Shown here one piece after another: positions 6,718 through 30,707 of a stretch of 43,925 bases of DNA; the first letter of the stretch is position 1, and every line of letters begins with the position of its first letter. Under the pieces are notes generated by a model that had not been told where the DNA came from, ran no database searches, and saw only the letters and a program-made list of their open reading frames with translations. The stretch lies in assembly GCA_013152275.1 (NCBI GenBank), contig JAADGS010000032.1, positions 1 through 43,925 of the forward strand. Direction: 5' to 3'. The DNA comes from Actinomycetota bacterium (GTDB lineage: Bacteria > Actinomycetota > Acidimicrobiia > Spongiisociales > UBA4744). The position numbers and the translations under genes are program-made.

Positions 6718-7482
6718 ATGGTCGTGCGTGTCGAGGATACGGGAGGTCTGGGAACCGTCGAGGTGGAGATCGCCGCCGGCGGGGGACCGGTCACGCCGGC
6801 GAGCAGGGTGATGGCACGGGCGGTGGGCCGCTGTCGGGATCTCCTTGTCGGCGTCGGCATCGACTGGGGCACGGGTACCGGGCTCCTCTCCATCGCCGCG
6901 GCCCGTATCCCCGCGGTGACGTCGATCATCGCCATCGAACGGGATCCCGAGGCGGTGGCGAACGCTCGCCGCAACGTCGCCCGCAACGGTGTTGCCGACC
7001 GAGTCACCGTCGTTCGGGCCGACCACTTCACTCCCTACGACCCAGGCGACCGGGATCTGCTCGAGCGGCTGGTCGGCGGTGTCGACTTCCTCGTTGCCAA
7101 CCCGCCGGCTTCCGACGACGGGGACGGGCTGGAGTGGCGGCGCCGGGTCCTCGACGGCGCCCGGCCGTTTCTGAAACCCGGCGCGGTTGTTCTTCTTCAG
7201 GTGTCGTCCCACTACGGAGAGGAGCGGATCAAGGGCCTTGCCGACGTCGGCGGCTACCGGTTCGTCGAGACGGTGGAACGCTCCTCGTGGGTGCCGTTCG
7301 ACCTCTCCCGTGAAGATCTGCGCCGGGCTCTCGACGTCTACGTCGCAGAAGAGCGCCGGGGTGGCCGCCCTTACGAGTTCCATCTTGCCGACGGGTCCGT
7401 GATCGACGCCCGACAGGTCGCCGCCGGGGTGGGCCCTCCACTCACGAGCTGGCAGGCCCACCGTTTCGAACGTACCGGCTGA
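6718..7482 (+). CDS. Class I SAM-dependent methyltransferase (HemK/PrmC-like NPP motif)
   Basis: IDWGTGTG motif I, IAIERD and LVANPPAS. The start could be 6688. Confidence 0.8.
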   Translation: MVVRVEDTGGLGTVEVEIAAGGGPVTPASRVMARAVGRCRDLLVGVGIDWGTGTGLLSIAAARIPAVTSIIAIERDPEAVANARRNVARNGVADRVTVVRADHFTPYDPGDRDLLERLVGGVDFLVANPPASDDGDGLEWRRRVLDGARPFLKPGAVVLLQVSSHYGEERIKGLADVGGYRFVETVERSSWVPFDLSREDLRRALDVYVAEERRGGRPYEFHLADGSVIDARQVAAGVGPPLTSWQAHRFERTG

Positions 7483-7689
7483 AAGCCGTCCTGGCCTGAT
7501 GCCTCCGCCAAAGGAAGGCGACCACCCGAAGTCGGCATCGCGCCGAAGAGCATCGGTGCGGGATGAGTCGGCGCCCCAGCCGGCTACTCCGTGGTATTTG
7601 GCGTATCTTCGCCGGCATCCAGGCCGCCGGACACAGCGCCGTGGCCGGATATAGGCGTGTCACCGTGGTGGTAGTCGTCGTTGACCTCA

Positions 7690-11931: not shown

Positions 11932-12275
11932 TACCGTCATGATGGTGTATGAGATGGACATGTCCTCGTACTCGAGAGCAGGTTTGCGTCTCGCTACACC
12001 GACGCGACCGCCAAAGGATCGACAAGTTCTCCCAGCCGCACGACCGTCCATCGGTGCGACGATCATCGACCGGCAGATTCGTCCGCGGAACGACACAAAG
12101 GCGGGTGTCGCGGGTGTCCTCGATACTCCGGCGAGAACCCCGTTGTCTGCCCACACCGCATCCGTCGTGAGCGGCGGTCGCCTGCTGTCGGGGATCGATC
12201 ACGAAGCCAGGATCCGGCACACCGGCAAAGGTATGGTGCTGCAACCACGGAACAGTATCTGACAAGGAGAGTGAT

Positions 12276-13727
12276 ATGCGGATCAGGAAACTACATCTCG
12301 CGCTGATGGCCGTGGCGCTTGTCGCCGCCTCCTGTAGCGCCGAATTCAGCATCGGGGACAACCTGGACGACACGTCCGCCGATGGTGGAGGACAGGCAGT
12401 CGACAGTCTGGACCGTGTCCAGGACGCGGTCGTACGCATCGTCGCACATGGCAGTTTCGTGGAACCGGGCGAAGGCACCATGTACAACACGGCAGGATCC
12501 GGCTCCGGGTTCATCGTTGACGAGTCCGGCATTGCCGTCACCAACAACCACGTGGTCGCCGGTGCAGCCTTCTTGGACGTGTTCGTGAATGGGGAGGTCG
12601 AGCCTCGCAACGCCAAGGTCCTCGGTGTATCCGAATGCTCCGACCTGGCCGTCATCGATATCGACGGTGAGGGGTATGCGTATCTCGAGTGGTCCAGCGA
12701 TCCGATCGTGGCCGGCGAGAAGATCTACGCTGCGGGGTTCCCGCTCGGTTCCGCCGAGTACACACTGCTGGACGGGATCGTCTCCAAGGCGAAAGCGGAT
12801 GGCGAGTCCGACTGGTCGTCGGTCGATCATGTGATCGAGCATTCCGCGGACACGCTTCCCGGCTCATCGGGCGGTCCAATCGTCACCGAGAACGGCAACA
12901 TAGTTGCCGTCAACTACGCCGGCGACTCTGCCGGCCAATCGTACGCGATCGGCCGTGACGAGGCGCTCTCCGTTCTCGATCAACTCAAAGCCGGCGAGAA
13001 TGTCACCTCCCTCGGCATCAACGGGCAGGCGATCAGCCAGGACGGCGTGTCCGGCGTCTTCGTCAACTCGGTCGTCTCCGGCAGCCCCGCAGGAAACGCC
13101 GGTGTCAGACCCGGCGATATCGTCACCCTCATCGAAGGGATCGTCCCTGCCACCGACGGCACCATGGCCGACTACTGCGACGTGCTTCGCAGCCGCAACG
13201 CCACCGATGCGATCTCCATCGAGGTGTACCGGCCCGACACGGACCTGTTCTACGAAGGTGTCCTCAACTCGGGTGAGAAACTCGCCGCCGAGGATGTTCC
13301 CGTAACGAACCCCCCGGCCACGGAGCCCACGGCGGCTGCATCACCGAGTCAGGACGACGTGTACGAGTACCTGCAGCTCTGGCCCGGCACCTGCTTCGAC
13401 GACGAAGGGATCGACCTCGACGCCGGCTACATCACACCCGTGGACTGTAACCAGGCACACGACAATGAGGTGATCGCCATCATCCAGTTCGATTCTTCCC
13501 GCCCGTGGCCTGGCGCCGACACGCTCCAAGAAGAATCGGACACAGAGTGCGCCGGTTCCGTCTTCGAAGACTTCGTTGGCGTTCCCTATGACGACTCGGC
13601 ACTGTACGTCGAATCGATCCCTGCCCCCCGGGGCGACTGGGACTCAGGCATGGCCTATGCCATCTGCGTCGCCTACGACGTGGACTGGGATCCCATCACC
13701 GGCAGTGTCTACCAGTCCGGCTACTAG
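12276..13727 (+). CDS. Lipoprotein HtrA-like serine protease (trypsin + PDZ) with C-terminal septum-formation-like Cys domain
   Basis: Lipobox AASC; GSGFIV, TNNHVV, SDLAV and PGSSGGP; PDZ; GTCFD...VDCNQAHDNEV...C...ICV. AAGGAG SD. Confidence 0.88.
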   Translation: MRIRKLHLALMAVALVAASCSAEFSIGDNLDDTSADGGGQAVDSLDRVQDAVVRIVAHGSFVEPGEGTMYNTAGSGSGFIVDESGIAVTNNHVVAGAAFLDVFVNGEVEPRNAKVLGVSECSDLAVIDIDGEGYAYLEWSSDPIVAGEKIYAAGFPLGSAEYTLLDGIVSKAKADGESDWSSVDHVIEHSADTLPGSSGGPIVTENGNIVAVNYAGDSAGQSYAIGRDEALSVLDQLKAGENVTSLGINGQAISQDGVSGVFVNSVVSGSPAGNAGVRPGDIVTLIEGIVPATDGTMADYCDVLRSRNATDAISIEVYRPDTDLFYEGVLNSGEKLAAEDVPVTNPPATEPTAAASPSQDDVYEYLQLWPGTCFDDEGIDLDAGYITPVDCNQAHDNEVIAIIQFDSSRPWPGADTLQEESDTECAGSVFEDFVGVPYDDSALYVESIPAPRGDWDSGMAYAICVAYDVDWDPITGSVYQSGY

Positions 13728-19210: not shown

Positions 19211-20857
19211 TCATGCAGCACAACAAGACAGGTTTCTGACGTCCTTGTTGAAGGTCTGGGCGGCGAGTTTGAGCGCCTCGGCCATCGTCAGATACGGGTG
19301 GAACATTCCGGCGATCTCATCGACCGTTGCGTGGTAGTGCATCGCCACGACCGCCGCCTGAATGACGTCACCGGCTCCCTCCGCCAGCATATGTGCGCCG
19401 AGCAACTCTCCGGTCGACTCATCGGCGACGAGCTTGATCACTCCGGCGGTGTCGCGGTTCACCAGCGCCCGGGGCACGGAATCGAGGGGAAGGATCGACG
19501 TCACGACCGGGCGTCCGGTCTCCCGCGCCGCCTCTTCCGTGAGGCCGACCGAAGCAATCGGAGGGCTCGTGAATGTGACACGCGGCATCGTGCGGAGGTC
19601 GATCGCGCGTCCCGCAGCGCGCAGCGCGTTCTCTGCGGCGATATTGCCGGAGGCGGCGGCGACGTAGACGAACTGCGGGATGGTGGTGACGTCGCCGGCT
19701 GCCCACACCGCCGGGTTCGAGGTGGCGAAGCTCGCATCGACGACGATTGAGCCGTGCTTGTCGGTTCCAACATCTGCAAAGTCGAGCCCAAGGTTCGCCG
19801 TGTTGGCCCGACGGCCCGTGGCGATCAGAAGCCGGTCGGCTTCCAGACGCGCGCCGGTGCCGCCGGTCTCGATCTCGAGCCATGTCCGGTCTCCGTCTGT
19901 GCCGGCGCGCCGTGCCACGGCATTCTCGTAGACCTGTCCGCCATCACTGACGAGGTTCCCGCGCAGCAGGTCGGAGATCTCGGGTTCTTCGAACGGGGCG
20001 ATCCGGTCCAACGCTTCGACCCAAGTGACCTTCGACCCGAGATGGGCGAAGAGCTGTCCGAGCTCGAGACCGATGGCATTGGCGCCGACGACGATCAGTT
20101 CCTCTGGCAGTTCCGTCAGCTCGAGAGCGGTCGTCGACGTCAGATAGTCCGTATCGTCGAGACCCTCGATCGGTGGCACCCACGGGGAGGCTCCTGTCGC
20201 GATGAGGTAGCGACCGGCTGTAATCGGTCGTCCATCGACCTCGACGGCATTTGGGCCGGTGAAGCGGGCGGTTCCTCTGATCAGATCGATGTCATAGACG
20301 TCGAGAAGATCGACGTACTTCTCCTGCCGGAGGACTCCGACGAGTTCATCCTTGGCTGCGATGAGGACGCCAAGGTCGAGATCACCGGCGAACGTCGCGA
20401 CTCCGGCGAACGGCGAGTGGCCGGCCTGGTGGTAGAGCTCCGCAGGTCGTAGCAACGCCTTGGACGGCACGCAACCGACGTTCACGCAAGTGCCGCCGAT
20501 GGTGCCCTTCTCGGCGATGGCGACGGACGCTCCGAGATCCCTCGCCTTGATCGCTGCGGCGAACGCCGCCGAACCCGAGCCGATGATCAGCAGGTCGTAG
20601 TCGTCGTCGCCCGAGGCGGTGATGTCCGCCGGCTCGTTGTCGGATGTGGAGACGGAGACGATCTCGTAGGTGGTCCCCTCCAGCGCATCGGTCGCCTTCG
20701 TCACGTCGAACGAACCTGTGTCGATTCCGGTTGCGAGCCCACGGCGCCAGTCGACTTCGAGATCCGTCAGGCCTGCCGAGGCAAGCACGCTCCCAACGTG
20801 GTGTTCGCAGCTGTCGCAGGTCATCCCCTTGACGCCGAGGGTGATCTTGGTACTCAT
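19211..20857 (-). CDS. merA: Mercuric reductase
   Basis: N-terminal GMTCDSC (NmerA), GGTCVNVGCVPSK, HPYLTMAE and C-terminal SCCAA. Confidence 0.96.
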   Translation of the reverse strand: MSTKITLGVKGMTCDSCEHHVGSVLASAGLTDLEVDWRRGLATGIDTGSFDVTKATDALEGTTYEIVSVSTSDNEPADITASGDDDYDLLIIGSGSAAFAAAIKARDLGASVAIAEKGTIGGTCVNVGCVPSKALLRPAELYHQAGHSPFAGVATFAGDLDLGVLIAAKDELVGVLRQEKYVDLLDVYDIDLIRGTARFTGPNAVEVDGRPITAGRYLIATGASPWVPPIEGLDDTDYLTSTTALELTELPEELIVVGANAIGLELGQLFAHLGSKVTWVEALDRIAPFEEPEISDLLRGNLVSDGGQVYENAVARRAGTDGDRTWLEIETGGTGARLEADRLLIATGRRANTANLGLDFADVGTDKHGSIVVDASFATSNPAVWAAGDVTTIPQFVYVAAASGNIAAENALRAAGRAIDLRTMPRVTFTSPPIASVGLTEEAARETGRPVVTSILPLDSVPRALVNRDTAGVIKLVADESTGELLGAHMLAEGAGDVIQAAVVAMHYHATVDEIAGMFHPYLTMAEALKLAAQTFNKDVRNLSCCAA

Positions 20858-20895: not shown

Positions 20896-20915
20896 ATATT
20901 GTGTTAATGCAATCA
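20896..20915 (-). promoter_or_regulatory. ArsR/SmtB-type operator upstream of merA
   Basis: ATATTG-tgttaatg-CAATCA; overlaps TTGCAT (-35-like) on the minus strand. Confidence 0.55.
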
Positions 20916-21287
20916 GTCCTGGTTCATAGGTTGTTCGGTCATCACGATGCGGCACGACCCGATATCGCCAGTGGTCGTGTCGAGGAATCCTTTGCCGAGA
21001 TCGAGCAGAGCGACAACTCGCGCGTTCGTAACCCGGTACTCCACGATACGGCCGCGCCGTACGCTTTCGAGGTATCCGCACCACTCGAGGCACGCGAGAT
21101 GTTGTGAGACGCGTCCCTGGGAGAGGCCGACTTCTTCGACGATCTCCTTTTGGCTTCGAGGGCCTTTCAGGAGAAGCTGAAGAATGCGGATCCGGGTTGC
21201 GTCACCGAGCCCTCGGAAGATGCGGGCGATGAGTTCCTCGTCGGGGAGCGGAACCGGGGTTGCTTCGATGATGGCTGGTCGTCCCAT
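20913..21287 (-). CDS. ArsR/SmtB family metalloregulator (probable Hg-responsive repressor)
   Basis: FRGLGDATRIRIL, SQGRVSQHLACLEWCGY and a C-terminal GSC; immediately upstream of merA. Confidence 0.9.
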   Translation of the reverse strand: MGRPAIIEATPVPLPDEELIARIFRGLGDATRIRILQLLLKGPRSQKEIVEEVGLSQGRVSQHLACLEWCGYLESVRRGRIVEYRVTNARVVALLDLGKGFLDTTTGDIGSCRIVMTEQPMNQD

Positions 21288-21353: not shown

Positions 21354-21971
21354 TCACACGACCGTGCTGCCGGTGACGGCGTAGGTGCCCGGTCCGCAAC
21401 GTGGGCATGCGATCTGTTGGGCGAGGGCCGACTGCAACTGTCGGCGAGCACGGCGAAGCCTGGCTTTTACAGCGTCTTCGGAGATTCCGAGACGTGTCGC
21501 GGTTTCGGCGGTCGAGAAGCCCCAGCCGAGGCGAAGAACGACGACGCCGGCCTGTCCCTTGGGTAGTTCATGAATGGCCAAGGCGGTCCGGCATCCCAGT
21601 ATCGAGATATCGAAGGCATCGGCAGGCCGGCTTGCACCGGGAATGTCTTCGGGGATGGCATCGGACGAACAGGTGGGAGGTTTCCTTCTGCGTCTGACAT
21701 CGAGGCAGGTATTGCGTGCCACCGCGAAGATCCATGTGCCGATCGTCGAGTCACCTCGGAACCGAGGGATGCCTCTGAGGATGCGCTCGTTGATCTCCTG
21801 GATGGCGTCCTCGCTTTCTCCGGGTGACACCATTCGGTGTGCACACCTCCAGAGTCGCTCTTGGTAGCGGCTCAACAGTTCACCGAGCCAGTCGCGGTCG
21901 TCATAGAGCGCCGCGGCCGTGAACTGTTCGTCCGTCAGTGTCGTCCAATTCGGCCTGGGAGTCGTGGCCAT
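21354..21971 (-). CDS. ECF sigma-70 factor with C-terminal CxxC extension
   Basis: SEDAIQE, FRGDSTIGTWIFAVARN, STAETATRLGISEDAVKARLRRAR; tail IACPRCGPG. Confidence 0.88.
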   Translation of the reverse strand: MATTPRPNWTTLTDEQFTAAALYDDRDWLGELLSRYQERLWRCAHRMVSPGESEDAIQEINERILRGIPRFRGDSTIGTWIFAVARNTCLDVRRRRKPPTCSSDAIPEDIPGASRPADAFDISILGCRTALAIHELPKGQAGVVVLRLGWGFSTAETATRLGISEDAVKARLRRARRQLQSALAQQIACPRCGPGTYAVTGSTVV

Positions 21972-22007: not shown

Positions 22008-22033
22008 ATAATATTGTAGTGAGCGAATGTTAT
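22008..22033. promoter_or_regulatory. Operator in the divergent ECF / transporter promoter
   Basis: ATAATATT-gtagtgagcg-AATGTTAT imperfect palindrome in an AT-rich gap. Confidence 0.55.
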
Positions 22034-22063: not shown

Positions 22064-22342
22064 ATGCCCGTGACGAACAGGTCTTCGTCCCGGCCGCGTT
22101 CGAGACAGGACGCGGCGGCGAGAGCCGGTGGTGTCGGTGGGGCGATCGCCTTGGCGTTGTGCTGTGGGGGCGCTCTGCTGGCCGCGGCATTGGGGCTCGG
22201 AGCGGTCGCTGCGTTTCTCATCGCTCCGTGGTTCATCATTCCTGTGGTCCTCTTGGCCGCAGGGATCGCCTACCGACGTTCGGTGAGACGCAAGCCGACG
22301 TGTGAAGTTCGACCGACTGCTCAGGAAAGGAAGCGGCGATGA
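22064..22342 (+). CDS. Small Mer-type (MerF/MerT-like) membrane protein
   Basis: Vicinal Cys pair in TM1 (ALALCCGG), a second TM segment, Cys in the tail (PTCEV); GGAGG SD; mer context. Confidence 0.65.
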   Translation: MPVTNRSSSRPRSRQDAAARAGGVGGAIALALCCGGALLAAALGLGAVAAFLIAPWFIIPVVLLAAGIAYRRSVRRKPTCEVRPTAQERKRR

Positions 22343-22965
22343 GTGAAAAGCAGAAGGCCCGGCGGCAACGCCGTCGCGCCGAACGAGCCGCCGGCGGTGG
22401 CGGAGCGAGCCGGAGATGGTGGATAGTCGGCGGCATCGGCGTCGTCGTGCTCGTAGCGGTCTCTGTGGCGTTCGCGTTGTCCCGGAGTCCGCAGGCGTCG
22501 ACAGGGCCGAGTCCGCAGGCGTCGACAGGGCCGAGTGCGGCGGCGTCGACAGGGGCGAGTGCGGCGGCCGACGTGGTGCTGCAGGATTTCGAGGGCAACC
22601 CCGTGACCATATCGAGTCTGGAGGGCCGGCCTCTTGTCATCAATTTCTGGGCCTCGTGGTGCCCGGCATGCTTCTCTGAGATGCCGAGTCTCGAGAAGGT
22701 CTACCAGGCCCATCGCGATTCGGTCCAGTTCCTCGGCATCAATCTCGGTAATGACATCGAAGCGGCCATGAGCGTCGTCGAGCAGACCGGTGTCACCTAT
22801 CCACTGGCGAGGGATCCGCAAGGCGAGACGTATGCCGAGTTCGGAGGCTATGGGATGCCGACAACGGTTTTCCTGGATGGGGATGGGCGCGTGATCGAGC
22901 TCTACACCGGTGAGCTCACGGTCGATGAGCTCGAAACCCGGATCGTCAAGTACTTCGAGAGCTGA
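22339..22965 (+). CDS. Membrane-anchored TlpA/ResA-like thioredoxin
   Basis: One N-terminal TM; LVINFWASWCPAC and GMPTTVF motifs. Confidence 0.9.
   Translation: MSEKQKARRQRRRAERAAGGGGASRRWWIVGGIGVVVLVAVSVAFALSRSPQASTGPSPQASTGPSAAASTGASAAADVVLQDFEGNPVTISSLEGRPLVINFWASWCPACFSEMPSLEKVYQAHRDSVQFLGINLGNDIEAAMSVVEQTGVTYPLARDPQGETYAEFGGYGMPTTVFLDGDGRVIELYTGELTVDELETRIVKYFES
22485..22568 (+). repeat. 24-bp in-frame tandem repeat (about 3.5 copies) in the TlpA linker
   Basis: GAGTCCGCAGGCGTCGACAGGGCC x2 followed by diverged copies (SPQASTGP/SAAASTGA). Confidence 0.88.
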
Positions 22966-23831
22966 TGATCCTCACTGCAGCACTTCTGTTCGCGTTTGTC
23001 GCCGGCATGGTCGCCACCGTCAACCCGTGCGGATTCGCGATGCTGCCCGCGTACGTGTCCATGTTCCTCGGTGGCAACGAAGGCGACGAAGCCCCTCCCG
23101 GCGTTGTGACGGGACTTCGAGTCGGCTTCTCTGTCACAGTCGGTTTCTTGGTGTTGTTCAGTGCCGTCGGTCTCCTGGTATCGGCGGGTCTCCAATGGAT
23201 GCTCAGTTTTGTGCCGTGGGTTGCGTTGGTCATCGGCGCATCGCTCCTTGGGATCGGCATCGCGGTGATACGCGGGTATCACCTCACCGCACGAGTCATC
23301 GGCATGAAGAAAAGGCAAGGCCGATCGTTTCTGGCCATGGCAGGATTCGGTGTTGCGTTTGGAACGGCGTCGATCTCGTGCACGCTTCCGATCTTCCTTG
23401 CAGTCGTCGGCCTTTCGGCAAGAACTCCGAGTCTTGTGTATGGCTGGTCGGTCTTCGTTGCCTACGCCGTGGGTATGGGTGTCGTGCTGGCCGCCATCGC
23501 CGTGGCGCTCGCGACATCCCGCCAGGTTCTCGTGACACGTATGCAGAGGATTCTTCCGTACGTTGAACGAATCGGAGGATGGTTACTCGTCGCATCGGGT
23601 CTCTTCATCATGTACTACTGGGCGATATCGCTGTTCGTCAAGCCCGGTCAGGACTCGATCCTCTACCGGCCGATCTTCTACGTGGGAGGAGTCTCGGCGT
23701 GGTTCACGAACAGCATCGGGAATACGCCGATACGCTGGGCCGGCGGCTTCGTCGCCGTGATCGTCGCGATCGGCGTTGCCGAGGCCATCCGCGTTCGGCG
23801 GCGCCGTCGAGCCAAGGAGATCGCATCGTGA
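22965..23831 (+). CDS. ccdA: CcdA/DsbD-type transmembrane electron transporter
   Basis: NPCGFAMLPAY and SISCTLP Cys motifs; multiple TM segments. Confidence 0.88.
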   Translation: MILTAALLFAFVAGMVATVNPCGFAMLPAYVSMFLGGNEGDEAPPGVVTGLRVGFSVTVGFLVLFSAVGLLVSAGLQWMLSFVPWVALVIGASLLGIGIAVIRGYHLTARVIGMKKRQGRSFLAMAGFGVAFGTASISCTLPIFLAVVGLSARTPSLVYGWSVFVAYAVGMGVVLAAIAVALATSRQVLVTRMQRILPYVERIGGWLLVASGLFIMYYWAISLFVKPGQDSILYRPIFYVGGVSAWFTNSIGNTPIRWAGGFVAVIVAIGVAEAIRVRRRRRAKEIAS

Positions 23832-25198
23832 CCGAATCCACAGACGTCGACACGATCGTCATCGGCGGTGGAATGGCCGGTCTCCCGTTCGCGCTGCGTG
23901 CCGCTCGGCGGGGTTCGACGGTGCTCATCGAAGGTGATCTCCTCGGAGGTACCTGTCTGAACCGGGGATGCATCCCGACCAAGACGATGATCCACTCTGC
24001 CAAGGTCGCGCATCTGGCGCGGCGCGCCGACGAATTCGGGATCGACGTGGGACCGGTTTCTGTCGACCTGGGCCGGATCGTCGACCGCAAAGATGCGATC
24101 GTCGAAGCCGTCAGGAATGGGTCGTATCGGGCGGCGGAGCGAGCGACGAATCTCACGCTTGTCGAGAACTGGGCCCGGTTCGTGGGACCGCACGCCGTCG
24201 AGGCCGGAGGGGCCGTGTACCGGGCCGCCCGGATCGTGATCAACACGGGCGCTCGTCCAACCGTGCCCGATCTGCCGGGGATCGGCGAGGTGCCGACTCT
24301 CGACTCGACGGCCGCGTTGGATCTTCGTGAGGCGCCGGAGCATCTGATCGTGATGGGCGGCGGCTATGTGGGCTGTGAGTTCGCCCAGATGTACCGCAGA
24401 TTCGGATCTCGGGTAACGGTGGTCCATCGCCGATCGCGTCTGCTTCCAGCCGAGGATCCCGAGGCCTCCGAAGTCGTCGAGCGTGTGTTCCTGCGTGAGG
24501 GCATCGAGTTGTTGCTCGGCGAGGAACCCACCGCGGTACGCGCGGCAAACGGCTGCATCGAGCTGTCCGTCGGTGGACGTGATGTCGGGGCGTCGCATCT
24601 CCTCGTGGCGGTCGGGAGAACACCCAACACGTCACGGCTCGGCCTCGAGATACCGGGTGTGGCGGTCGATGATGGGGGATTCATCGTCGCCTCCGAACGG
24701 TTCGAAACGTCGGCTGCCGGTGTCTACGCGATCGGCGATGTGATCGGACCACCACTGTTCACGCACTCGGCGAGAGACGACGCAGCGCTTCTCGCGCGAC
24801 ATCTGTTCAACGGAGAGGACATCACGACGTCGACACGACTGGTCCCACATGCCGTGTTCACCGACCCCGAGGTCGCCACATTCGGGATGACGCACGCCGA
24901 AGCGGAGACACGGTACGGCGAAGCGGCAGTGGGGGTCGAGAACTTCCGCGGCGTGGCCAGAGCGAAGGCGATCGGTGAGACGGACGGGTTCGTCAAGATC
25001 GTCACCAGGCCCGATCGAGTGATCGTCGGAGCCACGATCGTCGGACCCGATGCCGGGAACCTCATCCACGAACTCGTCGTCGCCGCGTACGCGGGGCTCA
25101 CCGTCGACCAGGTGCGCAACGCGATCCACATCCATCCCACGCTGGCAGAAGCGGTGAACGCCGCCGCCGGAGGGGTCCACCGACCAACAACGGCGTGA
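23828..25198 (+). CDS. Class I pyridine nucleotide-disulfide oxidoreductase (LPD/MerA-like, no C-terminal CC)
   Basis: IGGGMAG, GGTCLNRGCIPTK, GGGYVGCE and HIHPTLAE; GTGA-coupled to ccdA. Confidence 0.9.
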   Translation: MTESTDVDTIVIGGGMAGLPFALRAARRGSTVLIEGDLLGGTCLNRGCIPTKTMIHSAKVAHLARRADEFGIDVGPVSVDLGRIVDRKDAIVEAVRNGSYRAAERATNLTLVENWARFVGPHAVEAGGAVYRAARIVINTGARPTVPDLPGIGEVPTLDSTAALDLREAPEHLIVMGGGYVGCEFAQMYRRFGSRVTVVHRRSRLLPAEDPEASEVVERVFLREGIELLLGEEPTAVRAANGCIELSVGGRDVGASHLLVAVGRTPNTSRLGLEIPGVAVDDGGFIVASERFETSAAGVYAIGDVIGPPLFTHSARDDAALLARHLFNGEDITTSTRLVPHAVFTDPEVATFGMTHAEAETRYGEAAVGVENFRGVARAKAIGETDGFVKIVTRPDRVIVGATIVGPDAGNLIHELVVAAYAGLTVDQVRNAIHIHPTLAEAVNAAAGGVHRPTTA

Positions 25199-25516
25199 TG
25201 GCCGATCGGCGGACCTGCCGCGACGACACGGGGCGTCGTTGCCGGTGTCGGTCCGAAGGGGTCGCCCTACGGTCGGGGCACACCATGGGTTCGTGCACCT
25301 CGAGGATCCTGCCGGGGGTATGCCGTTCGGTGATCGGTGCGATCCGAGTAGTCCGGTGACACGTTTTCTCGGGCCTGGGGACACCGGGCGAGACCAACTC
25401 CTCCGCCTCGGTCGACGGAATGTCGGATCGTGAACGGAATTGTGTCGTCCGGAGCGACACGTTTCCGCCCGACCTTCGACTCAATCGTTGGGACCATACA
25501 CAAAGGAGGTGGCCCC

Positions 25517-25984
25517 ATGAGTTGGTTGAAGAAGAACACCAAGACCGAGCGGAAAGCATCGGCTCCTGCCCCCGCATCCCAGGGTGGACAAGCCGGCATG
25601 GACCAGATGGTTCGGATGCTGGCTGCCGCGCCGGAGGATCGGCGGACAATGATGCTCGGAGATCGCCTCGCCGTGTTCGCCGGTCAAGACGAAGCGTCTC
25701 GCGAGCGCGCCATGAAGGGGATGCTCGCCGCAGCGTTGCAGCTTCCCGAAGACGGCTACCGGAAGATCGCCGCGTCACGCTTCAAGGCGTTGAACGGGCT
25801 CGATGCCGATACCCGGATGACGCTGATGAAGTCGCACGCCGCCGTGGTCAAGTCGTTGCCGGCCGACCAGCAGCAGAGGGAGATGAAAACGATGAAGCAG
25901 ATCGTCTCCGCCCTGCCGGAAGCCGAACGTGGCCGGATGATGGCCATGATGCAGAACCTCGGGCTGATGGGAGAGGCGGGATGA
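25517..25984 (+). CDS. Hypothetical soluble Met-rich helical-repeat protein (155 aa)
   Basis: AAAGGAGG SD; 17 Met, no Cys; 19-residue periodicity. Confidence 0.8.
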   Translation: MSWLKKNTKTERKASAPAPASQGGQAGMDQMVRMLAAAPEDRRTMMLGDRLAVFAGQDEASRERAMKGMLAAALQLPEDGYRKIAASRFKALNGLDADTRMTLMKSHAAVVKSLPADQQQREMKTMKQIVSALPEAERGRMMAMMQNLGLMGEAG

Positions 25985-26172
25985 GCACGCCGGCGAAGTT
26001 CATCGCCGCCTATCTCGGAGTCCTCGTCTTGATGCTGACCTGGTGGTCGACGCTCAGGGCGTCGGGGTCGGTCGGGCAGATTTGGCTCGTCGTGGCAGCG
26101 TACGGTGCGCTGCTCGCCGTGTGGGGTGTCCTGGTGCGGTGGGGACGATCACAGGAAGAGGGGACGAAGTGA
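25981..26172 (+). CDS. Hypothetical 63-aa two-TM membrane protein
   Basis: MSTPAKFIAAYLGVLVLMLTWW...IWLVVAAYGALLAVWGVLV; ATGA and GTGA overlaps with both neighbours; GAGG SD. Confidence 0.7.
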   Translation: MSTPAKFIAAYLGVLVLMLTWWSTLRASGSVGQIWLVVAAYGALLAVWGVLVRWGRSQEEGTK

Positions 26173-27386
26173 CCGTCGACTGGCCGGCGATCGTCGGTGT
26201 GAGCCTCATCAGTGCCGTCTTGACACTCATGCTCTTCCCGTTCGCCGAACGGAAGGACTACCTGAAGAGCCGGCCACCATCGTTCATCGCCGGGGTGCTG
26301 TTCATGCCGTTGTTCGTCGCGATTGCCGTCATGCTGCAAACGGGCTGGGCCGATGCCGCCAAGGCAACGGTACTGGTCGTTCTCTTCCTCGGGTTCTGGG
26401 CATCGGCCGCGTGGCTGGTGCGCACCCCGATCGAGGGTGCCTATGTTCGTGGCCTCGAGTTCGGGCCGGGTCTGAACTTCCGGCCAGATCTCATCCTGCC
26501 CGGCGGAGTGATGTTGGTGAAGGGCATCATCCTCACCGGGGTGGGGACGTTGATCGCCGTTCAGGGCGTCTTCGGGCTGCCGAAATGGAGCTGGTCGGGG
26601 TTCATCCTTGCGTTCATCGGCATCATCACGATCATCCCCATCCGGGGAATGGCCAAGATGATCGCTCGAAGAGAGCGGTTCCTCGGCAACGACCCGCGCT
26701 GGCAGGTACCGGTGCGCTGGGCGCTGCTGGTCGGTGGCCTTGCGGTCCTGCTCTACGGTTTTCTGAGCGCGTTCATGGGAGGGACGCCCTTCGTCGATCT
26801 CCTCCCGAAGGCCGAGCTTTCCTGGCTCTCGGTCATCCTCCTCGTTGCCTCGTCCGCGTCGCTGTGGATCCGGGAAGTACGGAAGGCGAATCTCCTCGAG
26901 GGAACCGAGACCATGGCACAGCGGTTCGCATCGAACCTGTGGCTGTACCTGTCCGTCCTCGCCTACATGTATGGATTCATCGTGCTCTTCATGGGCACGT
27001 ATATGTACCCACACCCGGGAACGAATCCGTGGGGTGTGGTGCTCGGAGCCGGGTTGTTCATTGCGGGGCTGTCGCTGATGATCGGGTTCCGGCCGTTCGC
27101 GACCAGGAATGAGCTGAGCGGGACGATCGGCATCATGGTCGGGATGCTCGCGGCCCTCGAGAAGGAGGAGCGATGGAAGATGATGATGAGTCGCATCCGC
27201 ACCATCGCCGCATATCCGACCATCCAGTGCACCTGGCATGTCGGCACCATGGCCTCGGCTCTCGATGGGTTGTCGACGGTCGATCGGGAGCGTGTCGAGA
27301 CGACTCGCAACGAGGTGATGATGTCGCTGTCGAGTCAGGAACGGCAGGCGATGATGATCGCCATGGATCGACTTCGGGTCGCCTGA
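26169..27386 (+). CDS. Hypothetical polytopic membrane protein (about 9 TM) with C-terminal Met-rich repeat domain
   Basis: Many hydrophobic segments; tail is homologous to the 25517 protein. Confidence 0.82.
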   Translation: MTVDWPAIVGVSLISAVLTLMLFPFAERKDYLKSRPPSFIAGVLFMPLFVAIAVMLQTGWADAAKATVLVVLFLGFWASAAWLVRTPIEGAYVRGLEFGPGLNFRPDLILPGGVMLVKGIILTGVGTLIAVQGVFGLPKWSWSGFILAFIGIITIIPIRGMAKMIARRERFLGNDPRWQVPVRWALLVGGLAVLLYGFLSAFMGGTPFVDLLPKAELSWLSVILLVASSASLWIREVRKANLLEGTETMAQRFASNLWLYLSVLAYMYGFIVLFMGTYMYPHPGTNPWGVVLGAGLFIAGLSLMIGFRPFATRNELSGTIGIMVGMLAALEKEERWKMMMSRIRTIAAYPTIQCTWHVGTMASALDGLSTVDRERVETTRNEVMMSLSSQERQAMMIAMDRLRVA

Positions 27387-27570: not shown

Positions 27571-27981
27571 ATGAGAATCGGCGAGGTTGGGAAGGCGGTG
27601 GGGGTGGGTCCGCCGACGATCCGTTATTACGAGTCGGTCGGGGTGCTGCCGGAGCCGGAGCGGACCCCGTCGGGCTATCGCTCGTACTCGGTGGACGATG
27701 TGGAGCGACTGCGGTTTGTGACGTTGGCGAGGTCGTTGGGCATCGGGTTGGACGATATCCGCGAGATTCTGGGTCTGCGAGACCGGGGTGAGGCTCCGTG
27801 CCGGTATGTCCGTGCCGTGTTGGATCGTCAGGTGGATGCCGTTGCGGAACGAATCGGCCGGCTCGAGACCTTGTCTGAGGAGCTTCGCCGGTTGCAGCGA
27901 CTGGCTCGCACACTTCCCGATATCGACTCGGATGATCCCTGCGTGTGTCACATCCTCCAGCCTGCCGGGGCACGGCACTGA
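27571..27981 (+). CDS. MerR-family heavy-metal-responsive regulator
   Basis: MRIGEV...TIRYYE...RTPSGYRSY; Cys77; C-terminal CVCHIL. Confidence 0.92.
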   Translation: MRIGEVGKAVGVGPPTIRYYESVGVLPEPERTPSGYRSYSVDDVERLRFVTLARSLGIGLDDIREILGLRDRGEAPCRYVRAVLDRQVDAVAERIGRLETLSEELRRLQRLARTLPDIDSDDPCVCHILQPAGARH

Positions 27982-28256
27982 CCGTGCGTGGAACGACGGC
28001 AACGACAGTCCCCGACGACTTGGACGTGAGGGGCAGATGGCGGCAGCGGCATCGATGACGTTCACGGTGCAGGGGACTGCACGGGATCCGCAGACAGCCT
28101 CGGATCTGCGCCGAGCCATCTGGACGGTGTGATCCGGGCCCGAGCCGGCTACGACGGTGCCGGGTGGAGGTGCGTTTCTACCCGGACCGGGTGTCAAAGG
28201 ACGTCGTTCGAGGACGGATCCGAGCCTCGGGTTTCGAACCCGATTGAACAAACGAG

Positions 28257-30707
28257 ATGACAGAGATGGCCGACGGATCCACAGACCGAAACACCGACAT
28301 CGAGGGCGCACAGGCTGTGTTCCGGATGAAGATCGGTGGCATGTCGTGCTCGTTCTGTGCGTCGACGATCAACAAGGCCTACGGGCGGATCGACGGTGTG
28401 TATGAGGTGGGCGTGTCGTTGGCCCATGAGGAGGGGCTGGTCAGGTACGACCCTTCCAAGGTGACGCCGGAGAAGTTGCGCCGCACGCTGGAGGAACTGG
28501 GCTACACGTATCGGGATCCGGAGAAGGTGCGAAGCTTCGACGAGGACGCCGACGAGCTTCGCCGTGAGCGGGGCCGGTTGATCGCCGCGGGGAGTTTCGC
28601 CGTGGCGAGTCTGCTGCTGATGTTGTTCGGCCGGTGGCTCGATCTCGTCGAGATCCCGCTGATGCCCTGGCTGTTGTTGGCGTTGGCGCTGAACACGATG
28701 TTCGTCACGGGCTGGTTCATCAAGAAGATGGCATGGGCGTCGCTGCGCCGTGGCATTCTGAACCAGCACGTGCTGTTGGAGTTCGCCGCGTTCGCCGGGA
28801 TCGCCGGCGGCTTGATGGGTCTGTTCGTGTTGAACGATTTCCCGGTCGGTGACTTCTTCGCCGCCGCCACTCTGGTCACCACCTATCACATTCTGTCGCA
28901 CTACTCGTCGCTGGTCGTGCGCACGCGCGCATCGCAGGCGGTTCGCCGTCTCATGGCGCTACGTCCCGATACCGCCCGGGTGATCCGTAACGGTGAAGAG
29001 AGCGAGACACCGATCGACGGCGTGGTCTCAGGCGACCGTGTCCGCATTCGACCAGGTGAGTCGATCCCGGTCGACGGAATCGTCGTGGACGGGCTCTCGG
29101 CGGTGGACGAGGCGCTCGTGACCGGCGAGTCGATTCCTGCAGAGAAGGGTCCCGGCGACGACGTGATCGGCGGATCCATCAACCAGACCGGCACCCTCGT
29201 CGTGCAAGTGACTCGGGTCGGCGAGGACGCGTTCCTCTCTCGGGTGGGGCGTTTCATCGACGAGGCCCGAAGCCTCCGCCCCGGCGTGCTGCAGATCGTC
29301 GACGTCGTACTCCGTTACTTCGCACCCACCGTGCTCATCCTTGCCGCCGCCGGATTCGCGATCTGGACCGTTGCACCGGCTCTTCTCGGAGACGGACCGA
29401 ACTGGAATCGTGCATTCCTTGCCGGGCTCGCCACTTTGGTGATGGGGTACCCTTGCGCGTTGGGGATGGCCACACCGTTGGCCACTATTCGCGGCGGTGG
29501 CGAAGCAGCCCAGCGGGGGATCCTGATGCGATCGGGTGAAGCATTCCAGGTGATGGGTGACATCGCCGTCATCGTGTTCGACAAGACCGGCACGATCACT
29601 CGAAGCGAACCCACCGTGAATACCATCGTGCCGGCCGATGGCGTCAACGAAGAGGACGTGCTGCGGATGGGCGCCTCCATCGAGATGAACAGCGAACACC
29701 CTCTCGCCCGCGCCGTCGAAGGCGCCGCCGAGAATCAGGACCTCTCCCTGGTCGAAACCGATGCCTTCGAGTCCCACACCGGATACGGCGTGGAAGCCAT
29801 CGTCGAAGGCGCACGCGTTCTCGTAGGGAAACCGACCTGGCTCATCACAGAAGGTATCGATCTCACACCGCTCGACACCGACCGGCGGCGCCTCGAAGAA
29901 GCAGGCCAGACCGTCATCGCCGTTGCTCGCAGCGGACGGCTTCTCGGACTCGTCGGCATCGCCGACAACAGCAAAGACGACGCCGCCCAAACCATCCAAC
30001 GAATCAAGGACGCCGGCATCACCCCGGTCATGATCACCGGTGACAACCATCGCACCGCGCGAGCCGTCTCCACCCAGGTCGGAATCGACGAAGTACTTGC
30101 CGAGGTCCTCCCCGACGAGAAAGCCGCCGAGATCCGCCGGCTCCAGGACGACGGGACACGAGTGATGATGGTCGGTGACGGCATCAATGACGCTCCCGCC
30201 CTCACCCAGGCGGACATCGGCGTCGCCATCGGTGCCGGAACCGACATCGCCATCGAGTCCGCGGACATCGTCATCATGAGTGACCGGCTCGGTTCCGTGA
30301 TGGACGCCCACGAGATCGGCGTGTCCTCCTACCGCAAGACCAAACAGAACCTGGCGCTCGCGTTCGGCTTCAACGGAATCGGAATCGCCGCTGCGGTCAC
30401 CGGCCTCGTCAGTCCCGTCTGGGCAATGATCGCCATGATCTCATCGGTCACCGCGGTGCTCGCCAACTCGTTCGGAGGCCGGTTTCTCCGTGGCGAGGCA
30501 CGCAACAGCCGATACGAATCCTTCAGCCGAGACAGTCACCATCAGAGTCCCGATCGGCACGACGCGACCAAAGGCGGCGCACCTCACATGTTCGACCATG
30601 AGGGTCTGCTCGAACTTCGCCTGGACGGGCAAACGGTACGCTTCTGGGCCACGCTCGCCGTAGCGATCACGGCCATCACGCTTCTCGTCGGCGTCTGGTC
30701 GACTTGA
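28257..30707 (+). CDS. P1B-type heavy-metal-translocating ATPase (CopA-like, YPC variant)
   Basis: GMSCSFC MBD, TGES, GYPCALG, DKTGT, SEHPLA, TGDN and GDGINDAP. The start could be 28266. Confidence 0.93.
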   Translation: MTEMADGSTDRNTDIEGAQAVFRMKIGGMSCSFCASTINKAYGRIDGVYEVGVSLAHEEGLVRYDPSKVTPEKLRRTLEELGYTYRDPEKVRSFDEDADELRRERGRLIAAGSFAVASLLLMLFGRWLDLVEIPLMPWLLLALALNTMFVTGWFIKKMAWASLRRGILNQHVLLEFAAFAGIAGGLMGLFVLNDFPVGDFFAAATLVTTYHILSHYSSLVVRTRASQAVRRLMALRPDTARVIRNGEESETPIDGVVSGDRVRIRPGESIPVDGIVVDGLSAVDEALVTGESIPAEKGPGDDVIGGSINQTGTLVVQVTRVGEDAFLSRVGRFIDEARSLRPGVLQIVDVVLRYFAPTVLILAAAGFAIWTVAPALLGDGPNWNRAFLAGLATLVMGYPCALGMATPLATIRGGGEAAQRGILMRSGEAFQVMGDIAVIVFDKTGTITRSEPTVNTIVPADGVNEEDVLRMGASIEMNSEHPLARAVEGAAENQDLSLVETDAFESHTGYGVEAIVEGARVLVGKPTWLITEGIDLTPLDTDRRRLEEAGQTVIAVARSGRLLGLVGIADNSKDDAAQTIQRIKDAGITPVMITGDNHRTARAVSTQVGIDEVLAEVLPDEKAAEIRRLQDDGTRVMMVGDGINDAPALTQADIGVAIGAGTDIAIESADIVIMSDRLGSVMDAHEIGVSSYRKTKQNLALAFGFNGIGIAAAVTGLVSPVWAMIAMISSVTAVLANSFGGRFLRGEARNSRYESFSRDSHHQSPDRHDATKGGAPHMFDHEGLLELRLDGQTVRFWATLAVAITAITLLVGVWST

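Follow-up and report, generated by a model that had tools for sequence, protein, structure and literature searches.

The mer operons are among the best studied metal-resistance systems, and their transporters carry Cys pairs. In the available sections of a survey of 272 mer operons, membrane proteins encoded next to merA (MerT, MerC, MerF, MerE, MerH, and MerP) are described; the transporters have two to four transmembrane (TM) helices, and the transport genes recorded there are of the Cys type only and are nearly absent from archaea (PMC3466566). We analyzed a DNA stretch of 43,925 nucleotides (nt) from an Actinomycetota bacterium of the class Acidimicrobiia (assembly GCA_013152275.1, contig JAADGS010000032.1, positions 1 to 43,925), hereafter the window. 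It contains a module of three genes, A, B, and C, near merA, and this module may work like the MerT/MerP route, taking up Hg or handing it on to MerA. The module is real and undescribed, with a function that we infer; its tie is to mercury, across phyla, and not to copper. Its features are as follows.

25517–25984, + strand: gene A, 155 amino acids (aa), a Met-rich cytoplasmic solenoid of six to seven 19-residue helices (open reading frame (ORF) list and model)
25981–26172, + strand: gene B, 63 aa, two TM helices (B profile and TM prediction)
26169–27386, + strand: gene C, 405 aa, GTG start, nine TM helices and a cytoplasmic tail of four 19-residue helices
27135–27383, + strand: C-terminal helical-repeat domain of C (residues 323–405), homologous to A (profiles)
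25455–25483, + strand: extracytoplasmic function (ECF)-type promoter-like site, CG[AT]CAC-N16-CGACTCA, 34 nt before the start of A

The original prediction for this region proposed three coupled genes of no recognized family, and this is confirmed. The ORFs lie on the + strand with an ATGA overlap between A and B and a GTGA overlap between B and C, and none of the proteins has a Pfam or NCBIfam match above the cut-off; all three were also below the cut-off in PADLOC. A, B, and C are real coupled genes belonging to unnamed families. No description of the module was found in the full-text literature, with most subscription papers outside the reach of that search. The accessible part of one report mentions mer genes in Acidimicrobiia, but not A, B, or C (PMC12008989).

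Gene C is rare, with 45 homologs in a word-indexed search, 17 loci from 16 species genomes, and occurrence in 10 of the 301 genomes of the order. The records span Acidimicrobiia, other Actinomycetota, Bipolaricaulia, Anaerolineales, and archaea. The predicted association with metal loci is supported by merA: counting each genome once, merA sequence is present in 18 of the 19 genomes with the module (16 intact, one cut by a contig end, and one frameshifted), and it lies within 10 kb of the module in 11 of the 19. The baseline for merA is 31 of 351 genomes in a sample of the class and 43 of 301 in a sample of an archaeal phylum. All four module genomes in the class sample hold merA (Fisher p = 5e-5, which is overstated, as two of them are one genus). 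Within the flanks, where 33 proteins were picked as candidates, merA scored above the curated cut-off in 10 of 36 loci (L003, L005, L006, L007, L008, L011, L012, L015, L019, and L029); L002 retains the last 38 merA codons at the contig edge, and merB is found in L012 and L015. In the C tree, the copies adjacent to merA are distributed over six separate branches, and this label is not clustered (335 of 500 shuffles were as low). A, C, and merA are consecutive on one strand in L011, and an HMA protein directly precedes B-C-A in L008.

Copper genes are not associated in the same manner. A P1B ATPase was found in the flanks of 4 of 38 loci (two from the same genus and one ZntA-like), compared with merA in 12 and a merA fragment in one more. 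The MerR-family regulator adjacent to the module in the window contains Cys77, a mark of divalent-ion sensors, and scores best as CadR/PbrR-like. The emphasis on Cu(I) and Ag(I) in the original prediction is not supported by these observations.

The flanks of the module in the window are composed as originally described, with the mer and thiol genes on the left and the MerR-family regulator and P1B ATPase on the right.

19211–20857, − strand: merA, mercuric reductase with an N-terminal HMA domain (TIGR02053, 559 bits, cut-off 454)
20913–21287, − strand: ArsR/SmtB metalloregulator (NF033788 above cut-off)
21354–21971, − strand: ECF sigma factor with a short Cys-containing C-terminal extension, first gene of ecf-arsR-merA (TIGR02937 above cut-off)
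22013–22033, no strand: conserved motif in the divergent ecf/merT-like intergenic region, found by eye; candidate ArsR operator or promoter
22064–25198, + strand: context operon of a MerT-like protein (Cys-Cys pair), a TlpA thioredoxin, CcdA, and a PRK06370-like disulfide oxidoreductase
27571–30707, + strand: MerR-family regulator (Cys77, C-terminal CxC) and P1B ATPase, the right-hand context

The MerT-like protein matches MerT below the cut-off (E 0.001). The MerR-family gene and the P1B ATPase gene are lineage-specific neighbors and probably lie outside the module.

Comparison of the regions upstream of A revealed the sequence CG[AT]CAC-N16-CGACTCA approximately 30–40 nt before the starts, which we take to have the shape of an ECF promoter. 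The strict motif has a single match in the window, before A, where 0.02 are expected. This site has the top score of its own genome (25.7, next 18.9), a result that is circular here because the matrix was built from pre-A sites. A relaxed motif, the pattern of which was adjusted after the first matches, matched 34 times within the 230 kb covered by 20 actinobacterial-type sequences (including the window and some near-duplicates), and 30 of these matches were near a called start. The 20 Markov controls gave 0–2 matches, the 171 kb from the other 17 loci gave none, and the 3.07 Mb of the own genome gave five. In related loci, the motif precedes A or B, a further membrane protein gene (D, described below), and patatin, SPW, DUF5698-like, glutamate dehydrogenase, and deaminase-like genes. 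In L002, a broken copy of A stands directly before B and an intact copy 3 kb away (7153–7560 and 12131–12568), each with the promoter motif. Two other candidate control elements were set aside: a site common to A and the mer genes was looked for in the window and not found, and a TGTCG-N6-CGACA inverted repeat that stands upstream of A in relatives does not occur in the window and is frequent across the genome.

The C-terminal tail of the ECF sigma factor has a CxxC motif in seven of the seven listed homologs, plus one further conserved Cys. A search of 351 genomes gave seven matches at E 1e-25, four with at least 53% identity and three with 35–36%. The orthologs at or above 53% identity, a threshold chosen afterwards, occur in exactly the four of 351 genomes that contain A and C. 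In Acidimicrobiia, the promoter motif before the module occurs together with this one ECF sigma factor. The ECF ortholog is still beside merA in G353 and G797, whose modules lie on a different contig; the merA sequence of G353 (C93:4715–6318) occupies two overlapping frames, owing to a frameshift or an assembly error. No ECF ortholog was found in G818, which is 88% complete. As in ECF238/CorE-like factors, there is no evident anti-sigma gene, the Cys-bearing tail is short (~20 aa), and the locus is a metal locus; in contrast to them, the tail has only CxxC and one further conserved Cys and lacks the CxC linker motif. ECF287, with a tail of ~80 aa, fits less well. According to the accessible portions of earlier studies, mer is repressed by ArsR in Streptomyces and Sulfolobus, ArsR being the type of mer regulator in actinobacteria and archaea (PMC3466566), and CorE-type sigma factors owe their activation by metal to short Cys tails (PMC7826278, PMC8999054). 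With these precedents, a cascade from Hg through ArsR and the ECF sigma factor to the module would therefore be an economical explanation, and the sigma factor is the predicted activator of the module. The intergenic motif at 22013–22033, which by eye recurs in L003, L006, and L048 and is absent before A, is a candidate ArsR operator or promoter.

A and the C-terminal tail of C share a helical-repeat domain. The original prediction aligned them without gaps, and residues 31–107 of A and 323–399 of C indeed have 17 identities in 77 positions, exactly as first counted. Pairwise BLASTP alone was dropped as proof of a shared domain, since its E value of 1.3 is not significant. The best score of the pair was reached by none of 2000 shuffles, and 17 identities were reached by 11 of 2000. 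The match is degenerate in register, with three offsets 19 residues apart scoring 32, 37, and 34; since a 19-residue repeat makes up both stretches, the alignment slides by 19 at equal score. The self-similarity of both stretches peaks at 19 and 38. The homology is settled at the profile level: hhalign of A against the C tail gave a probability of 97.5 (E 6e-12), the C-family profile picked up A at E 1.9e-6 among 1.84 billion proteins, and the A-family profile, run on the 37,857 six-frame ORFs of the own genome, retrieved A and the C tail (E 1e-12) and nothing else. On these profiles, the homology of A and the C tail can be considered solid. The domain is rich in Met and poor in Cys, as was claimed, with 11.0% Met and no Cys in A and 13.3% Met in the C tail.

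The closest named family for A is weakly matched. DUF3106 (PF11304) gave 17 bits for A against a cut-off of 24.3; some homologs reached 25–29 bits without a single significant stretch, and weak matches were found in 42 of 73 A proteins (best E 8e-7). DUF3106, of unknown function, also has short helical repeats and the LP-x-[DE]-x-x-R pattern, but the period in A is strictly 19. The resemblance is probably at the level of the repeat.

B was predicted to be a small accessory subunit, and this part was not borne out. Of 37 longer C-family proteins, 13 were matched at their N-terminus by a profile of 16 B peptides, with independent E values of 3.5e-11 to 1.4e-5, while the best unrelated ORF in the own genome had an E value of 0.23. 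Judging from these profiles, B is a split-off N-terminal hairpin of C and not a separate kind of subunit. B and C are consequently one membrane protein with 11 TM helices (12 when fused), which is split here. The N-terminal part of C is encoded as two small genes (2-TM and 1-TM) in L012 (9594–9928), L025 (1299–1633), and L023 (503–911), and in L012 they are preceded by a PIG-L deacetylase gene.

The model of C (predicted local distance difference test (pLDDT) score 89.8, predicted template modeling (pTM) score 0.89) has nine TM helices and four repeat helices. TM4-5, TM6-7, and TM8-9 are repeats of one hairpin (probability 97 for TM6-7 against TM8-9 and 83 for TM4-5 against TM8-9), and each ends in a near-invariant Arg. 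The basic loops suggest that the tail is cytoplasmic. The whole model of 405 aa gave a best E value of 0.012 with TM-scores of at most 0.17 in Foldseek and a best Z score of 7.3 over 53 residues in VIA-align; negative fold searches, for C as for A, do not show that the folds are new. There was no match to PDB sequences and no usable match in the ESM Atlas for C. Compared with the Mer transporters, B+C has more TM helices, a Met-rich solenoid tail, its own ECF promoter, and no conserved Cys. Neither B nor C matched any Pfam or NCBIfam family at E values up to 1, the Mer transporter families included, whereas the MerT-like neighbor matches MerT weakly. With no match and no conserved Cys in its sequences, the module is not a member of the MerT/MerP route.

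The third protein with the repeat domain, D, is a membrane protein of ~330–370 aa in which the domain is inserted mid-protein, with conserved His and Met in the membrane part. D was found in 17 of 36 related loci and was not found in the own genome, which is 100% complete by markers. DUF6789 (PF20587) weakly matched 2 of 18 D proteins (best E 2.5e-4), but it differs from D in the helical-repeat domain inserted in the middle.

A has a short aromatic and basic N-terminus, which may tether it to the membrane, and no hydrophobic signal segment. Its model consists of seven helices of period 19 (residues 23–147) with a pLDDT of 88 (96–97 over residues 31–130). The fold search indicated a HEAT-like stack among a range of unspecific helical matches, the best being CNOT1 (Z 8.5, root mean square deviation 3.6, 132 aligned), and no STI1 match was among the matches listed. 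PDB sequences gave only weak short matches (E 0.004 or worse), and the ESM Atlas placed A near three clusters of hypothetical proteins (0.87–0.89), which are leads only. The MgtE N-domain was rejected as a relative because it gave weak rows only. In a rough screen in which close relatives are over-represented, 44 of 78 A-type proteins had membrane-anchoring features (TM hairpins, SPW domains, or terminal aromatic motifs); A is probably membrane-tethered.

A homolog of A is near C in 30 of 36 loci (one of them weak), and the other six are contigs shorter than 5.5 kb. The gene order varies among A-B-C, B-C-A, A-[BC], and [BC]-A; therefore, the partnership of A and C is more than synteny. A had been proposed to dock on the homologous domain of C. 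Docking gave a score of 0.59 with a best control of 0.00, although this score may reflect the stacking of homologous repeats, which is outside what the controls cover. The runs agreed in 100% of contacts with a partner pLDDT of at least 84. The mark applied to docking was reached by 116 of 157 solved pairs and 2 of 215 mismatched pairs; scores up to 0.60 include only 18 of the 157 solved pairs, but both mismatches. The models thus lend weak support to docking of A on C, and the contribution of repeat stacking is left uncontrolled.

Eight columns of A are 79–96% Met in 73 A proteins and form MxxM/MxxH pairs (i,i+3), mostly on alternate helices. In C, M21 never varies; the only replacement of M46 is Glu, which comes with Arg in place of K118 (3 of 48 homologs). 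TM2 of the C model is broken at M46-P47. Enrichment in Met characterizes the merA-linked clade. The Met residues stressed in the original prediction are thus kept in the module's own clade but not in distant members of the domain (1.3–7.4% Met). The helical i,i+3 Met-containing motifs and about six helices of SilE/PcoE resemble those of A, but SilE, in the available sections of a study of it, is periplasmic, His-rich, and disordered without Ag (PMC5008109), whereas A is cytoplasmic, contains one His, and is predicted to fold alone. No homology between A and SilE/PcoE was found. A CopZ/HMA-type chaperone was also considered for A and rejected, given the absence of Cys, the all-helical model, and the lack of an HMA match.

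A, B, and C probably play a role in the response to mercury or soft metals. It is plausible, although the chance falls somewhat short of even, that they form a complex in the inner membrane which is under ECF control and captures Hg or passes it on as an accessory, second-tier response module. Hg(II) would lift the ArsR repression of ecf-arsR-merA, and the Cys-tailed sigma factor would then turn on A-B-C. The solenoids of C, A, and, where present, D may stack at the inner face of the membrane, where the aligned MxxM pairs and the membrane residues M21 and M46 could bind Hg(II) or Hg-thiolates weakly. The solenoids would buffer Hg or pass it between the membrane and MerA with no Cys pairs of the kind found in known Mer transporters. 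The most specific form of this proposal is rather unlikely: that B+C, with D and A, is a Cys-free, Met-based system for Hg transport and hand-off with a new membrane fold, distributed in archaea and several bacterial phyla and governed by a two-step cascade in Acidimicrobiia. If true, such a system would fill the place of the membrane component that archaeal mer operons are reported to lack. The merA-linked unnamed families, ranging from Acidimicrobiia to archaea and accompanied by a predicted sigma factor and promoter, are a testable candidate for an unknown mercury-response branch in lineages of sediment, groundwater, and hot-spring type.

Several observations count against such a role in mercury handling. 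Hg proteins normally use Cys, but no Cys is conserved in A, B, or C (among 48 homologs, C has one Cys, 17% conserved, and B has none), and the locus already holds a MerT-like gene with a Cys pair. The conserved Met residues of A are replaced mostly by Leu, Ile, or Val and never by Cys or His, distant relatives carry Ile, Leu, Phe, or Ala at these positions, and the co-variation of H107 with E/D122 resembles that of a structural pair (Arg-Asp in nine, Arg-Glu in none). The possible stacking artifact in the docking score belongs here as well. Among the genes bearing the motif, those for the patatin, SPW, DUF5698-like, glutamate dehydrogenase, and deaminase-like proteins are none of them metal-specific, and none of merA, arsR, and the MerT-like gene in the window was found to have the motif upstream. 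In the class sample, 27 of 31 merA genomes are without the module; therefore, it is accessory. The sole module genome without merA (L001) is 71% complete, and of the four metagenome loci longer than 10 kb, only L029 has merA, while the flanks of L020, L027, and L034 do not. Met-poor proteins with the A domain occur in 58 of 301 archaeal genomes, and the inspected loci are housekeeping contexts that are not beside merA. In addition, all counts are inflated by related genomes and shared islands.

Other explanations were considered. In the main rival, the module would serve in membrane damage control, co-induced with mer and not binding metal; Met-lined solenoids would grip hydrophobic helices or lipids, as in an STI1-type groove, and so shield or reshape membranes that Hg or other thiol-reactive stress has damaged. 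This is tentative and somewhat unlikely. It would explain why Met is exchanged only for hydrophobic residues, and it is consistent with the HEAT-like stack of A, the membrane anchors in many A homologs, the PAC2-family gene directly before C in L013 and L029, and the company of a co-regulated patatin lipase, SPW and small TM proteins, with a cyclopropane synthase in the same clusters. In the available part of one study, Met-rich grooves are described as a hallmark of TM-binding chaperones (PMC13083928). A resembles their small, all-helical, Met-rich domains near membranes. However, a general repair unit is not expected to stay beside merA in six lineages with different regulators, and A models as a HEAT-like stack with no STI1-type sequence or fold match listed. 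Even in that case, there would be three new protein families, a new repeat domain reaching ammonia-oxidising archaea, and a new ECF regulon. A wider stress regulon, in which the ECF sigma factor governs lipid, ammonia-producing, and kinase genes and the module rides on metal-resistance islands with merA as shared cargo, seems improbable. The patatin, cyclopropane synthase, and glutamate dehydrogenase genes and the AmiS/UreI channel with PrkA (L002, L010, and L015) would suit it, as would the housekeeping contexts of the distant archaeal relatives and the observation that ECF tracks the module better than merA does. Yet the ECF gene itself lies within the merA operon, and archaeal copies without this ECF still adjoin merA (L011 and L029).

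The Cu(I)/Ag(I) role originally emphasized, with A as a chaperone or store docking on a Cu/Ag transporter C and, in the form considered here, acting together with the adjacent P1B ATPase, appears distinctly improbable. The MxxM/MxxH motifs of A resemble the His/Met motifs of SilE, as far as the available sections describe them (PMC5008109), D has conserved membrane His and Met, and copper-type genes do occur near the module: CsoR-family repressors beside it in L023 and L034, a CopZ zinc-finger domain in L013, and a cupredoxin in L008. These are outweighed by the scarcity of P1B ATPases in the flanks, where merA is far more constant, by the divalent-ion type of the adjacent MerR, and by the single His, the missing signal peptide, and the confident fold of A, which SilE does not share. 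The least probable explanation, a long shot, is that the Met residues are a sacrificial sink for oxidants (HOCl and peroxide) recycled by the TlpA/CcdA thiol relay. An ECF-controlled Met-rich protein, MrpX under SigF, is a precedent in the accessible part of its description (PMC4436054), and TlpA, CcdA, a peroxiredoxin, OsmC, and a thioredoxin reductase are among the neighbors. MrpX, however, is located in the periplasm and has a methionine sulfoxide reductase as its partner; no such reductase was found in a subset of 210 scanned neighbor proteins, and the Met residues of A are conserved in position within a folded solenoid, not merely abundant.

The distant relatives of the domain fall into several groups. 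A conserved, Met-poor archaeal relative of 153 aa, without a Pfam family, has purA on one side of its gene and a convergent Fe(II)-trafficking gene (PF04362) on the other (L063:1498–1956 and many of L060–L088). A second archaeal clade has relatives of 121–125 aa in varied contexts (L070:1480–1842 and L089–L103); in L097 and L098, they follow a molybdopterin oxidoreductase and have a peroxiredoxin nearby, and in G411 the distance to merA is approximately 10 kb. Identification of this clade with MerI of Sulfolobus was rejected for the inspected loci, and the match in G583 is more than 1 Mb from merA. TPR proteins in L041, L042 (1486–2859), and L043 (1492–2937) end in a Met-poor copy of the domain and are followed by an unnamed gene that is BirA-like by eye, with no Pfam match.

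Other genes near the module were also noted. An AmiS/UreI-family channel and a PrkA AAA kinase are paired near it in three lineages (L002:4454–6901, L010:8057–10528, and L015:9921–12416). PAC2-family (proteasome assembly chaperone-like) genes are beside it in archaeal-type loci (L013:238–960, L013:3152–3895, and L029:8884–9585). A class III aminotransferase in L029 (12115–13449) passed the cut-off of PRK00062 (HemL-like) as well as that of the GntE model and is probably a HemL-like paralog. The same-genus locus L048 (7350–9736) lacks the second disulfide oxidoreductase of the window (23828–25198) and has a patatin gene before A instead, which is lost in the window. Cu(I) ATPases usually show CPC, YN, and MxxSS; the P1B ATPase of the window (28257–30707) has YPC, FN, and MxxSS motifs and an N-terminal HMA domain with CxxC. 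The TlpA gene contains three tandem 24-nt copies (22485–22568) encoding a low-complexity linker.

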